Below the pieces are notes generated by a model that was given only the letters and a program-made list of their open reading frames with translations, ran no database searches and was not told the origin of the DNA. A stretch of DNA of 64,000 nucleotides, taken from assembly GCA_016839585.1 (NCBI GenBank), contig JAEOTZ010000042.1, positions 1-64,000 of the forward strand, in the 5' to 3' direction. Numbering within the stretch: the stretch's first letter is position 1; every line of letters begins with the position of its first letter. The position numbers and the translations under genes are program-made. Below, piece by piece: positions 3,651 through 8,247 of the stretch. The stretch comes from Promethearchaeota archaeon (GTDB lineage Archaea > Asgardarchaeota > Lokiarchaeia > Sigyniarchaeales > SOKP01).

Positions 3651-5324
3651 TTGAAATCTTTTGATTTTGATTTTGAAGTTCAAGAGATCTTTACTAAAAA
3701 ATTCTCTAATATCAAATCTCTTAACTGGAAAAGTTGGCTTGAAATAGGTTCTAAGGAAGAATATGAAGAGCTTGCACTGAAACTTTCTGGATTATTTTCG
3801 ATTGAAAATGTTTTAGAAAGAATTAAAGAGGAAAAAACGGATTCCAGAAGTTTTTCAATCGATCTAAATTCTTTTTTAGTTACATGGCAGGATAAAGATC
3901 CTCCAATTTTTTGCCATACTTCTGGAACAACAGATAATAAATTATCCAATTTAAAATGGTTTCATATGTCTAGAGATATTATTGAAAGGCAATGGGCTCC
4001 AGGAATGCAAGCTATTTTTGAATCAAGTGGTTTGGATACTAAGTCATCAGCAATTATTTTTATACCATCTAGATTGGAATTTGATGGAATTAGGAGAAGT
4101 GAAGATACTACCCATATTTCATTATATTCTTCAGAATTTTCTCAGAGAATTATGCTTTCTGTTGTTAAACCTTATTCATATACATTCTATGAATATAGAA
4201 ATTCAAAGAATTTAGAAATTATATCTAAGATTTTACTTATGGAAAATATTGCAGTTATTTCTGCTCCTGCTATAACAATTCTGGGTTGGGCTGATATAAA
4301 TAGATTACAAACTGGCTTAAAGAAATCTCTCAATTCAATAGATTCGGTTAATAATTCAATCTTAGAGAGTTTTTTAAATAAAATTAAAAAAAAAGGCTTG
4401 AGTTCTGTAGCAAGAGAAATTCAAGAAAAATTGTCAGAAAAATTATCTAAGGCTACATTGATTTTTAGTATTAGTTCTCTTTCTAAATCAGACTGGGAAT
4501 TAATTCGTACATTGATGAAATGGGAGACAGGTAAAGAAAAATTCACAAATCTCTATGTATCCTCTGAGATCGGACCTTTTGCGGCAAGTATCAATAAAGG
4601 AAATTTTGAAATTTCACGTTTAAATAGAATGTATGTTTTTCCTTTAACATTGCCTGTTATTGAGAGTAAAGGTAAGAAGGAATTAATATCTAGAAGTAAA
4701 AATAAACTTGGTAAGCTTCTTGTATCTAGATTGAATAATTCAAGAGTTCTAATCAATATTGATACAGGAGATATTATCTCTGTTAAGAACAAAGAAGCAA
4801 TTCCTCAAATTGATGGGAAAATTTTAAGATCACAATTCCAATTAAAATATCCTATTAAGATATCAAATCAAATTAAAATTAACTCAAACTATACTATCTA
4901 CGCCGGAGATTACTTTTCGTTAACTGATTTTGAAATAGTTGAACCGCGTGTTCTATTAAATCGTTTGAAAGAACAATGTAATTTTACAAGTGATTCCTTA
5001 ATATTAATTAAATTTATTGAAAAAGAGAAAATTAAGTGGAAACTAATCATACCTTCAAGTAAAAATACAATTTGCTCAGATGAACGCAGTGTGAGAAAAT
5101 TTATCTTAAAATATCCAGAATTTGATGAAATACATCAAGCAATTAAAGACCAAATTATCCATTTTCAGTTAATCAATGGTAATCCCGTAGATTTTCTAGC
5201 CCACCGCGATGAGATGTTAATGAGAGTTAGAAATGGCAAAATTCCAAAGGGAATTCTTAAAAAATGGTCTTTATATGTTATTAAACCTGAACAACCCCAA
5301 TTAATTAAAAAAGAAAAAATTTGA
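3651..5324 (+). CDS. GH3/LuxE/PaaK-like acyl-adenylate-forming (ANL superfamily) enzyme
   Basis: ANL motifs HTSGTT (P-loop), LYVSSEIG and DTGD. Confidence 0.65.
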   Translation: MKSFDFDFEVQEIFTKKFSNIKSLNWKSWLEIGSKEEYEELALKLSGLFSIENVLERIKEEKTDSRSFSIDLNSFLVTWQDKDPPIFCHTSGTTDNKLSNLKWFHMSRDIIERQWAPGMQAIFESSGLDTKSSAIIFIPSRLEFDGIRRSEDTTHISLYSSEFSQRIMLSVVKPYSYTFYEYRNSKNLEIISKILLMENIAVISAPAITILGWADINRLQTGLKKSLNSIDSVNNSILESFLNKIKKKGLSSVAREIQEKLSEKLSKATLIFSISSLSKSDWELIRTLMKWETGKEKFTNLYVSSEIGPFAASINKGNFEISRLNRMYVFPLTLPVIESKGKKELISRSKNKLGKLLVSRLNNSRVLINIDTGDIISVKNKEAIPQIDGKILRSQFQLKYPIKISNQIKINSNYTIYAGDYFSLTDFEIVEPRVLLNRLKEQCNFTSDSLILIKFIEKEKIKWKLIIPSSKNTICSDERSVRKFILKYPEFDEIHQAIKDQIIHFQLINGNPVDFLAHRDEMLMRVRNGKIPKGILKKWSLYVIKPEQPQLIKKEKI

Positions 5325-5334
5325 TATTTTAAAT

Positions 5335-5736
5335 TTATTTCCAAATTACTAAAATACTTCCCGCAATTAAAAATGCAATAAGATAAACGATATATTCTAA
5401 AAGAAATAGTTTCATACCTCTATCGTTAAAATTCGACTGATTTATACCTATAGTTGCGACAAATCCAATCCAAAGCAATAAACTGAGTAATAAAGCGGGA
5501 CCAATCTCTGATAATCCTATTAAGATCATAACAACATCAATTACAAGTACTGTAATAAAACTTAATGGAATCATAATTATTGTTTCTTTTATAATTTTAG
5601 ATTTGGGCTCACCTTCTTTACCAACTAATTTAAGCCAGAGATTTCCGAATGCAGAAGGAAAATACCAAAAAAAATGTATGGCAAAATAAATCAGAGCGAC
5701 AATAGTAACTGCTAACCAATTAATTTCAATAGCCAT
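5335..5736 (-). CDS. DUF1761-like 4-TM membrane protein, copy 1
   Basis: INWLAV...WYFPSAFGNLWLKL...LLWIGFVAT pattern; ATG at 5736. Confidence 0.75.
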   Translation of the reverse strand: MAIEINWLAVTIVALIYFAIHFFWYFPSAFGNLWLKLVGKEGEPKSKIIKETIIMIPLSFITVLVIDVVMILIGLSEIGPALLLSLLLWIGFVATIGINQSNFNDRGMKLFLLEYIVYLIAFLIAGSILVIWK

Positions 5737-5776
5737 TTTAAACCACAATTTATCATTTTAATATATTTTAATAGGA

Positions 5777-5813
5777 ATATAATTAAGCAATATTTATTTC
5801 TTATTTATTTAAA
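5777..5813. promoter_or_regulatory. Conserved divergent promoter region, copy 1
   Basis: ATATAATTAAGC-N2-TATTTATTTCTT-N-TTTATTTAAA is repeated at 6984-7020 (offset 1207). Confidence 0.55.
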
Positions 5814-5843
5814 TTATAACTAAAATACCTAAGTGAACTCTAA

Positions 5844-6317
5844 GTGAAAGATAAATTTAATTTAGTAGAAAAAAAAATCAAGGAATTTTCCCTGTCAAAT
5901 TCTAGAGGCGAAACTAGAAATATCCGTGAATTTGAGGGTGAAAAAAATGTAGTGATTGTGCTATTCAGGAGTAAAAGTTGACCCTATGCTAAGGCTCATT
6001 CAGAAAAATTAGGAAATGATTATGAAAAATTTAGAGAACTTAATGCTGAACTATATGCAATCTTACCAGATGACCTTGAAAATGCGAAAATTTTTGAATC
6101 GAATTTTGCAAAAGAGTATGCTATATTTTATGATGATAAAAAAAAGGTAAATAAAATGTTAAAGCAAGAAGTAAAGCCTTTAAAATTGGGGAGAATGCCA
6201 GCGCTCCTTATTATAGATAAACAAGGGATTATAAGATATGCATATTATAGTGATTCTATGGCTGATATCCCGGAGAATGAAGATTTATTTGAAGTGCTTG
6301 AGAGCTTGAATAATTAA
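5844..6317 (+). CDS. Peroxiredoxin-like (AhpC/TSA/redoxin) putative selenoprotein, copy 1 (157 aa, in-frame TGA 5979-5981, motif UPYA); absent from ORF track
   Basis: GTG start; MKDKFNLVEKKIKEFSLSNSRGETRNIREFEGEKNVVIVLFRSKS-TGA-PYAKAHSEKL...GRMPALLIIDKQGIIRYAYYSDSMADIPENEDLFEVLESLNN*. Thioredoxin-fold homology on both sides of the TGA. Confidence 0.85.
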
Positions 6318-6320
6318 AAC

Positions 6321-6391
6321 GATTTGGTATGAATAAAATAGAATAAATTTTTGAATTTTATTCATAAAAGTTAGCCACACTTGACCAAATC
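6321..6391 (+). ncRNA. Conserved 3' UTR three-way-junction RNA (candidate UGA-recoding element), copy 1
   Basis: P1 GATTTGGT/ACCAAATC; P2 ATGAATAAAAT/ATTTTATTCAT; P3 AAGT/ACTT with loop TAGCCAC. Confidence 0.6.
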
Positions 6392-6530
6392 ATATTTATA
6401 ATTTCATGAAAAGATTTGTCCACATCTTATAAGAGTATTATAAAATAACTAGAGTTCAATTAAGAAAATCTTATATGTTTTCGAACCTTAACACTTAAAA
6501 TTAATTAAAAAAAAAATTGAAATTTTTAAT

Positions 6531-6932
6531 TTATTTCCAGACTACCAAAATACTTCCAGCAACCAAAAATCCAATAAGATAAAAGATATATTCCAATAGA
6601 AACAGTTTTAAACCTCTATCATTAAAATTAGTTTGATTTAGTCCTATCGTGGCTACAAAACCTATCCAAAGTAATAAATTTAGCAACAGTGCAGGACCAA
6701 TCTCGGTTATACCTGCTAAAATCATCACTACATCTATAATTAATACGGTAATGAAACTTGTTGGAATCATTATAATTGTATCTCTTATAATCTTTGATTT
6801 AGGTTCGCTTTCTTTTCCTACTAATTTTAACCATAAATTACCGAATGCGAATGGAAAATACCAAAAAAAATGTATTGCAAAATATATTAATGCGACTACA
6901 ATAACTGCTATCCAATTAATTTCAAAAGCCAT
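6531..6932 (-). CDS. DUF1761-like 4-TM membrane protein, copy 2
   Basis: Close paralog of 5335..5736; ATG at 6932 (GTG at 6938 also possible). Confidence 0.75.
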   Translation of the reverse strand: MAFEINWIAVIVVALIYFAIHFFWYFPFAFGNLWLKLVGKESEPKSKIIRDTIIMIPTSFITVLIIDVVMILAGITEIGPALLLNLLLWIGFVATIGLNQTNFNDRGLKLFLLEYIFYLIGFLVAGSILVVWK

Positions 6933-6983
6933 TTCCACACCAAAAAATAAATTTTTATTTTAAATTTATAATTTTTAAGGATT

Positions 6984-7020
6984 ATATAATTAAGCTGTAT
7001 TTATTTCTTCTTTATTTAAA
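6984..7020. promoter_or_regulatory. Conserved divergent promoter region, copy 2
   Basis: Matches 5777-5813. Confidence 0.55.
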
Positions 7021-7049
7021 ATATAAATAAAAATTAAAATGAAGTCAAA

Positions 7050-7526
7050 ATGAAAGATAAATTTAATTTAGTAGGCACTAAAATCTATGAGTTTAGTTTA
7101 CCAAATTCTAGAGGTGAAACGATCAACATTAGAGATTTCGAAAACAAAAAAAATGTAATAATTGTATTATTTAGAGATATCAATTGACCTTTTTGTCGAT
7201 GGCATGCTGCTAGATTAAGAAGAGACCTTGAAAAATTTGAAAAATTGGATGGATTTTTGTATCCAATTTTAGTTGATAATGAAAAAAATGCTAAAAAAAT
7301 GGAACAGAAATATGCAAAAAAGTACGCTGTCTTTTATGATGAATCAAAAAAAGTTGCTACGCTGTTAAAACAAGAAAAAAGGTGGATTAAACTTGGTCGT
7401 ATGCCGGGATTATTAGTAATTGACAAGAAAGGGATCATTCAATACGCCTATTATGGGAAAAGTATGCATGATATCCCAGAAAACAATGAAATATTGCAAG
7501 TTCTTGAAAAAATAAATAAAAAATAA
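7050..7526 (+). CDS. Peroxiredoxin-like putative selenoprotein, copy 2 (158 aa, in-frame TGA 7185-7187, motif UPFC)
   Basis: ATG 7050; MKDKFNLVGTKIYEFSLPNSRGETINIRDFENKKNVIIVLFRDIN-TGA-PFCRWHAARL... continues in frame into track ORF 7245..7526. Confidence 0.87.
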
Positions 7527-7597
7527 TGATTTGGTAAGAATAAAATAAAAAAAAATGAGATTTTATTCTTTAAAGTTAGCCACACTTTACCAAATCA
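7527..7597 (+). ncRNA. Conserved 3' UTR three-way-junction RNA (candidate UGA-recoding element), copy 2
   Basis: P1 TGATTTGGT/ACCAAATCA; P2 AAGAATAAAAT/ATTTTATTCTT; P3 AAAGT/ACTTT with loop TAGCCAC. Confidence 0.6.
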
Positions 7598-7660
7598 AAT
7601 TACAATTTATAAATATATCAAAAAGAGATATTCTCATAGGAGCATTATAAAATTAAATCC

Positions 7661-8140
7661 TTATCTTTCTTCAAAGGATTTGAGTCCAACTAATTTTCCG
7701 ACTACTTCAAATTTATAGATAATTTGATCTTCAGTTTTGAAATTATCCCATCCTCCTTTTTTTTTGAATCCATGAGCCGAAAGAAAATTGGTAGAAAAAT
7801 TCTCTCTAGCAATTTGTACCATCTTATTCATAACTTTGTGTTTTAACGCTTTATCTTTGATAATCTTTAAAACCCCTTGCATCGAAACAAAATAATAACT
7901 GCTTAAATCAGGTTCAAAATTTTCGATTGAAACACATACATTGGGATTTTTTGAGAGTAGCTCTTTCTTTTTGCCATAATCGGTAAAATGAAAGTATAAA
8001 GTGTTATCAATGCAAACATATTGGAAAGGAGAGATATAAGGAAAATCATCATCAATGAATGCAATTCTACATAAATTATGAGAATAAATTGCTTCTCTTA
8101 TTTCCTTTTCACTCATTTTTGGTAGTTTAATTGTTTTCAT
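7661..8140 (-). CDS. Pyridoxamine 5'-phosphate oxidase-like (NimA-type) FMN-binding protein
   Basis: CRIAF..PYISP..LYFH...GKK..L..NPNVCVSI. Confidence 0.8.
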   Translation of the reverse strand: MKTIKLPKMSEKEIREAIYSHNLCRIAFIDDDFPYISPFQYVCIDNTLYFHFTDYGKKKELLSKNPNVCVSIENFEPDLSSYYFVSMQGVLKIIKDKALKHKVMNKMVQIARENFSTNFLSAHGFKKKGGWDNFKTEDQIIYKFEVVGKLVGLKSFEER

Positions 8141-8247
8141 TTATCTAACCAACATTTCTAATCTTTTGAGATTTTGCTGTAACTAAAAAAAAATTTCCTC
8201 AAATTTATATTTGTTTACAAATATTTCTTAATTTTAATGAGATCTAA

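Follow-up and report, generated by a model that had tools for sequence, protein, structure and literature searches.

Tandem peroxiredoxin-like genes of a Lokiarchaeial genome with an in-frame UGA, probably a selenocysteine codon, and a conserved three-way-junction RNA after each stop codon

Two redoxin genes, each with a single in-frame TGA

The stretch of DNA analysed here (the window, 64,000 nt) comprises positions 1 to 64,000 of contig JAEOTZ010000042.1 in assembly GCA_016839585.1 of a Promethearchaeota archaeon of class Lokiarchaeia; the genome has 3.45 Mb in 91 contigs, 29% G+C, and is 99% complete. Two paralogous genes of the peroxiredoxin-like (PrxL) family, referred to below as copies A and B, lie here in tandem. 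Each carries a TGA at codon 46 that is very probably read as selenocysteine (Sec, U), and each is followed by a structured RNA that may be a variant of the selenocysteine insertion sequence (SECIS). The features are as follows.

5844 to 6317, + strand: PrxL copy A (A-type); GTG start, 157 amino acids (aa), predicted Sec46 in U-P-Y-A, no cysteines, TAA stop
5979 to 5981, + strand: in-frame UGA of copy A (predicted Sec codon), codon 46
6319 to 6393, + strand: three-way-junction RNA after copy A, candidate SECIS variant; covariance model R1, 76.4 bits; fold z-score −3.65
7050 to 7526, + strand: PrxL copy B (B-type); ATG start, 158 aa, predicted Sec46 and Cys49 in U-P-F-C, TAA stop
7185 to 7187, + strand: in-frame UGA of copy B (predicted Sec codon), codon 46
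7526 to 7598, + strand: three-way-junction RNA after copy B, candidate SECIS variant; covariance model R1, 86.6 bits; fold z-score −4.08

An earlier note, made from the DNA letters alone, had placed a TGA at codon 46 of both paralogs, with the frame and the thioredoxin-fold similarity continuing on both sides. Both statements hold. From start codon to TAA the single TGA is the sole interruption of each frame; around it, copy A reads S-K-S-U-P-Y-A and copy B reads D-I-N-U-P-F-C. The Pfam domain AhpC-TSA (PF00578) matches both read-through proteins with 72 bits over residues 8–132, a match that spans the TGA, and Redoxin (PF08534) matches both with 50–52 bits. The two proteins align without gaps at 60% identity over 156 aa. 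Standard calling of open reading frames (ORFs) divides each gene in two, with 45 aa in the N-terminal part and 53 or 93 aa in the C-terminal part, as the same note had seen in its ORF track.

Contigs from a second run of the same study cover both TGA places with no differences. Because these independent contigs agree and a TGA stands at the same column in dozens of genomes, the TGAs are not assembly errors.

The central claim of the earlier note, hidden selenoprotein genes at this locus, is already known: these very genes are published. Supplementary files 51, 79 and 86 of Huang et al. (2024, PMC11227280) hold both exact sequences as Sec-containing Prx-like proteins; copy A is identical letter for letter to Lokiarchaeia_GCA_016839585_U_2 and copy B to Lokiarchaeia_GCA_016839585_U_3, each with X at residue 46. 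In 2016 PrxL already figured among the five selenoprotein families described from Lokiarchaeota (PMC4989117), and it is present in 43% of Sec-using Asgard genomes (PMC11227280). A third PrxL gene of GCA_016839585, with the motif W-U-S-H-C, lies on another contig (C24). Routine annotation still breaks such genes, and public sets hold C-terminal fragments or a W at the Sec position. Two points are possibly new and of interest to specialists: a 3′ RNA without the kink-turn core, and a cysteine-free A-type of the protein.

The UGA codon, its position in the active site and the selenocysteine machinery

With copy B as query, orthologues with exactly one TGA were found in 25 of 41 related genomes. 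Of 161 Lokiarchaeia genomes searched across the class, 91 have the gene, nearly always with a single TGA. When 21 orthologues are aligned by codon, all 21 have TGA at this column. Pairwise Nei-Gojobori estimates of dN/dS for the part downstream of it have a median of 0.11 and a maximum of 0.39; upstream the median is the same (0.11). Decay is excluded by this level of selection downstream of an invariant TGA. Genome-wide reassignment of the codon is excluded as well, because the genome uses TGA as a normal stop (208 of 1592 long ORFs end in it, a number close to that for TAG) and a whole-genome ARAGORN search found no tRNA with anticodon UCA other than the tRNA-Sec candidate described below.

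Among the full-length relatives in protein databases, 67 of 72 show W at the Sec column. We considered and rejected these entries as homologues with Trp or another sense codon: they come from short AT-rich metagenome contigs, and they count as TGA forms because the genes were called under a code with TGA=W. The public protein sets show the same kind of Sec-codon annotation artefact more widely: in matches P0003–P0073, dozens were called with TGA=W (code 4) and others are C-terminal fragments of 89–106 aa. Genuine Cys forms are rare (P0067 and P0076, both C-P-F-C).

The only full-length orthologues without TGA in the 161 genomes carry Asp instead, in the motif G-L-M-D-L-F-C (L060:885-1355 and L061:1501-1971), and one of the two stands in tandem with a TGA-type copy. 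In these Asp-type orthologues the redox nucleophile has seemingly been abandoned, not swapped for Cys. The UGA is always followed directly by CC, which is invariant because the next codon encodes a conserved Pro.

The earlier note had put the UGA at the first position of a CxxC motif. The Cys of P0067 and P0076 falls there, and so does the first Cys of W-C-P-Y-C in the thioredoxin-like structure PDB 3hdc, which aligns with residue 46. The second redox-box position is Cys in copy B (U-P-F-C) and neither Cys nor Sec in copy A (U-P-Y-A). This difference divides the family into two types. In 50 of 53 B-type representatives (U-P-F/Y-C-R), the redox-box partner is the single cysteine of the protein. 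None of the 17 A-type cluster representatives (copy A, whose motif reads S-K-S-U-P-Y-A-K-A, and 16 others) contains any cysteine, the second position being Ala or Ser. An A-type gene also occurs in another genome without a B-type neighbour (locus L037).

The host is a Lokiarchaeon, in agreement with the earlier note, which had pointed to Lokiarchaeota as reported to encode Sec. It has genes for all components of Sec synthesis and delivery. SelD is encoded by two tandem genes (198 and 170 bits), each with its own in-frame TGA; SepSecS scores 388 bits, EFSec/SelB 242 bits and a PSTK-like kinase 146 bits. The tRNA-Sec candidate has the anticodon UCA, the anticodon loop CUUCAAA and a 31-nt insert in the T-loop. 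SepSecS, EFSec and this tRNA lie within 6 kb of each other on contig C86. A 31-nt intron in the T-arm and linkage to EFSec were described for the tRNA-Sec of Loki by Mariotti et al. (2016, PMC4989117). Other known selenoprotein genes of the genome are three HdrA+VhuD pairs and VhuU, each with a canonical lokiSECIS.

An alignment of homologues, dN/dS downstream of the TGA and a search for the Sec machinery were among the checks that the earlier note had named. All of them speak for its view that the UGA is recoded, most likely as Sec, and that decay of two otherwise intact copies is unlikely.

The RNA after each stop codon and the reading of the UGA

In the DNA alignment of the two copies with their surroundings, about 75 nt at or just 3′ of each stop codon are more conserved than the coding sequence. 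The RNA of copy A begins 2 nt past the stop, and the first base of the RNA of copy B is the last base of its TAA. The element has the shape of a three-way junction: an outer helix of ~8 bp; hairpin 1, whose stem has 9 bp and whose A-rich loop of 12–13 nt ends in UGAG (AAUAAAAAUGAG-like); and hairpin 2 with a stem of 4–5 bp and the 7-nt loop UAGCCAN, whose UAGCCA is almost invariant across the clade. In copy A the 9-bp core of hairpin 1 extends to 11 Watson-Crick pairs and the loop of hairpin 2 is UAGCCAC. The 3′ untranslated regions (3′UTRs) of 23 orthologues, with G+C contents from 22 to 76%, nearly all fold individually into the same Y shape.

In a first alignment, which was not fitted to a model, 90.7% of cells are paired and 18 of the 22 pairs show compensatory changes. 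After realignment of 46 elements to a covariance model, a step that favours the structure somewhat, the values are 92.9% and 20 of 22; none of 500 shuffles and no slid register came near the values observed for the 46 elements. RNAalifold on the raw MAFFT alignment recovered hairpin 1 only, the full structure being obtained with a stated structure and model-based realignment. Across the whole genome, covariance model R1 matches only the two window elements. An Rfam scan of positions 5300–8200 gave no SECIS and no credible family, only matches at chance level.

The main argument that this RNA serves UGA recoding is that it tracks the TGA-type genes. The element stands directly 3′ of every TGA-type gene tested (46 elements at 45 loci); both Asp-type orthologues have none, and their 3′UTRs are unstructured. 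We also considered base-pairing between the UAGCCA loop and coding sequence around the UGA and rejected it, as no consistent complement was found and two relatives with the loop UGCCC show no compensatory change.

At the core positions the window elements replace AUGA by NNGA (5′ side) and GA by UC (3′ side). Columns 15–61 (GC 39, AU 4) and 16–60 (AU 40, CG 2, GC 2) covary as Watson-Crick pairs, so that no sheared G.A tandem or kink-turn is possible at the core. Other kink-turn registers were examined and discarded, being unconserved in the 46 elements: an AUGA that overlaps the stop codon, an AUGA within the apical loop and, in copy A, a GA that precedes the outer helix on its 3′ strand.

The lack of a kink-turn core, with Watson-Crick covariation at the equivalent positions, also speaks for a different assignment: the proteins would contain Sec, but the three-way-junction RNA would be a terminator, a stability element or a regulatory element and not the recoding signal. 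T-rich tracts that follow the element in some relatives fit such a role. We regard it as unlikely. The vicinity offers no other conserved structure: the scan of the 3′UTRs for the canonical pattern is empty, and conservation between copies A and B does not extend further 3′. It also has to face the absence of the element after both Asp-type orthologues, and the match of its A-rich hairpin 1 loop ending in UGAG and of its second hairpin to canonical lokiSECIS of the same genome. The third PrxL gene (C24) has a near-canonical lokiSECIS whose loop, AAAAAAAUGAG, is almost the same as the hairpin 1 loop in the window.

Several observations weigh against reading the UGA as Sec. Direct evidence of translation or of selenium incorporation is lacking, and no RNA run is listed as covering the stretch. 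The PSTK-like kinase scores below the curated NCBIfam cut-off. The tRNA-Sec candidate reaches 34.6 bits against an Rfam cut-off of 47, a low score due mainly to the 31-nt T-loop insert. ARAGORN, run on the whole genome with introns allowed, reported 30 tRNAs and no tRNA-Sec, and it stayed silent on tRNA-Sec when the insert was removed in trial cuts; what supports the candidate is its alignment to the Rfam model, its UCA anticodon, its synteny and the description published for Loki. Finally, the window RNA does without the AUGA..GA core of every described lokiSECIS and eukaryotic SECIS, so that its part as a SECIS is putative.

The missing selenium evidence and the missing kink-turn core, together with the fixed context of a UGA always followed by CC, leave room for readthrough without selenium, by a near-cognate Trp, Cys or Arg tRNA or in a context-dependent manner, promoted by the 3′ RNA. 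We consider this very improbable. The genome encodes a complete Sec pathway, with UGA codons in its own SelD genes; the UGA of PrxL coincides with the redox nucleophile, a position held by Cys in rare homologues; and the CC is merely the conserved Pro codon. Moreover, Trp or Arg at this position in the A-type would give an inert protein with no other redox residue, yet selection on it is strong. As for decaying pseudogenes or sequencing errors at the TGA, for which one could cite the splitting of both genes by standard gene callers, the retention of the TGA in ~90 genomes, the downstream dN/dS and the identical bases of the independent contigs have already refuted them, and their probability is negligible.

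Recoding of the UGA as Sec in both genes is thus the reading that we hold, with high confidence. Copies A and B would be cytoplasmic thioredoxin-fold PrxL oxidoreductases related to SelL/PRXL2. In the archaeal/eukaryotic-type pathway, tRNA-Sec would be charged with Ser, modified by PSTK and then by SepSecS with selenophosphate from SelD, and delivered by EFSec. Sec would occupy the first, nucleophilic position of a CxxC-type redox box. Copy B would then cycle through a Sec46–Cys49 selenenylsulfide; copy A, having no cysteine, would need an outside thiol to resolve its selenenic or selenenylsulfide intermediate, as in a 1-Cys peroxiredoxin or GPx. Most likely, recoding is directed by the three-way-junction RNA at the stop codon, which we infer to be a lokiSECIS derivative without the AUGA..GA core in which stem, A-rich apical loop and second hairpin are retained.

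A broader proposal stands, in our judgement, at about even chances: that the whole PrxL clade with an MKDKF... N-terminus (~90 genomes) is recoded by a SECIS variant without a kink-turn, and that its A-type members are cysteine-free enzymes with a single selenol. If so, the kink-turn would be dispensable for Sec insertion in these archaea, which lack SBP2, and the apical loop and the second hairpin would be the real determinants of an Asgard SECIS, invisible to search models of the form GA_[G/A]A. Asgard SECIS elements have been discussed as a bridge linking archaeal with eukaryotic insertion of Sec on account of their AUGA..GA core; a large conserved group of UGA genes with a core-less element would show which parts of an Asgard SECIS matter.

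Each PrxL gene lies within a tandem duplicated module of ~1.2 kb, next to a divergently oriented gene.

5335 to 5748, − strand: DUF1761 membrane gene, divergent neighbour of copy A, inside the duplicated module (context only)
6531 to 6938, − strand: DUF1761 membrane gene, divergent neighbour of copy B (context only)

The duplication (5330–6480 versus 6526–7690) takes in the DUF1761 gene, the shared divergent promoter region, the PrxL gene and the 3′ RNA; similarity between the module copies is higher in the promoter-proximal region and in the 3′ RNA than in the coding sequences. A functional partnership with DUF1761 was rejected, since only 11 of 53 related loci have this neighbour, all in part of one genus.

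Two further ORFs of the genome are candidate selenoprotein genes. The first, a candidate for a new small selenoprotein of 93 aa (C60:21746-22024, + strand; also L058:3747-4028), has an in-frame TGA in the motif S-S-T-U-T-L-A-F-C and a perfect canonical lokiSECIS 25 nt downstream, at C60:22053. TGA-bearing orthologues with 76–90% identity occur in three other genomes of the genus; there is no Pfam or NCBIfam match, and no such family was noticed among the seven listed for Asgard archaea in the 2024 catalogue. The second may encode a small membrane selenoprotein (C31:25708-25926, + strand; also L053:3709-3930): a 73-aa ORF with one predicted membrane helix, a TGA near the C-terminus (G-G-P-S-U-L-C) and a canonical lokiSECIS at C31:25965. 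Two further genomes of the genus have the ORF with its TGA, at 82% and 54% identity, and it has no family match.

Comparison with known redoxins and SECIS elements

By sequence, the closest solved structures are PDB 3drn and 2cx3 of the BCP/PrxQ group (E = 7e-9), with which copies A and B share the overall fold. The active site is different. In the alignment with 3drn, Sec46 pairs with the Thr of T-x-x-C, and Cys49 of copy B lines up with the peroxidatic Cys, where copy A has Ala; the logic of the active site is for this reason thioredoxin-like and not that of a typical peroxiredoxin (AhpC, BCP or PrxQ). The T/S-x-x-C motif of the latter is absent from both copies, Sec replacing Thr. The published definition of the Prx-like family is the same, with Sec at the first redox-box position in place of the Thr of TxxC (PMC4989117).

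The AhpC/TSA fold, the placement of Sec, the absence of cysteines other than that of the redox box and a Lokiarchaeal host with Sec machinery are all shared with the Asgard PrxL family. Copy A, with U-x-x-A, departs from the motifs published for PrxL, UxxC and UxxU only; a 2026 review likewise gives Prx-like selenoproteins as UxxC and UxxU only. A-type sequences are present in the files of the 2024 study and are not discussed in the accessible part of its text (PMC11227280). Eukaryotic SelL/PRXL2 is a Prx-like protein of thioredoxin fold with the redox box at the same place as in copies A and B, though SelL has UxxU, unlike either copy. The best NCBIfam match is in keeping with this relationship, a SelL-related redox protein (NF040769) at 47–52 bits, below the family cut-off of 120 bits.

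The lokiSECIS was described as a stem of 9 bp flanked by AUGA on the 5′ side and by GA or AA on the 3′ side, with an 11-nt loop that has adenines at its start and AG at its end (PMC4989117). This canonical form stood after every PrxL gene studied in 2016 (PMC4989117), and the 2024 search model is GA_[G/A]A around a stem of 7–15 bp and a loop of 8–20 nt (PMC11227280). The window elements fail the 2024 model, and a scan with the strict canonical pattern found six lokiSECIS in the genome, none of them after the window genes. In the literature covered we found no three-way-junction or core-less Asgard SECIS, the per-gene SECIS table of 2024 lying outside that coverage.

Published descriptions, in the parts available, deal with the core, the stem and the apical loop only. 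Our single-sequence folds go beyond them: of the elements folded (C45:36480, C47:151046, C49:18945, C59:33919, C31:25965, C24:1731 and the 3′UTRs of the two SelD genes on contig C5), most are predicted to form a three-way junction, in which an outer helix encloses the AUGA..GA hairpin and a small second hairpin. The window elements thus have the same general architecture as these predicted folds.

Set beside the canonical lokiSECIS, the window elements differ in two respects. They lack the AUGA..GA quartet and its kink-turn, and the loop of hairpin 2 is UAGCCAN, versus GNRA-like loops (AUAGCAA, ACGCAA, GCAA, GCGA) in the canonical elements. The placement directly after the stop codon, the 9-bp stem and the A-rich loop ending in AG are common to both.

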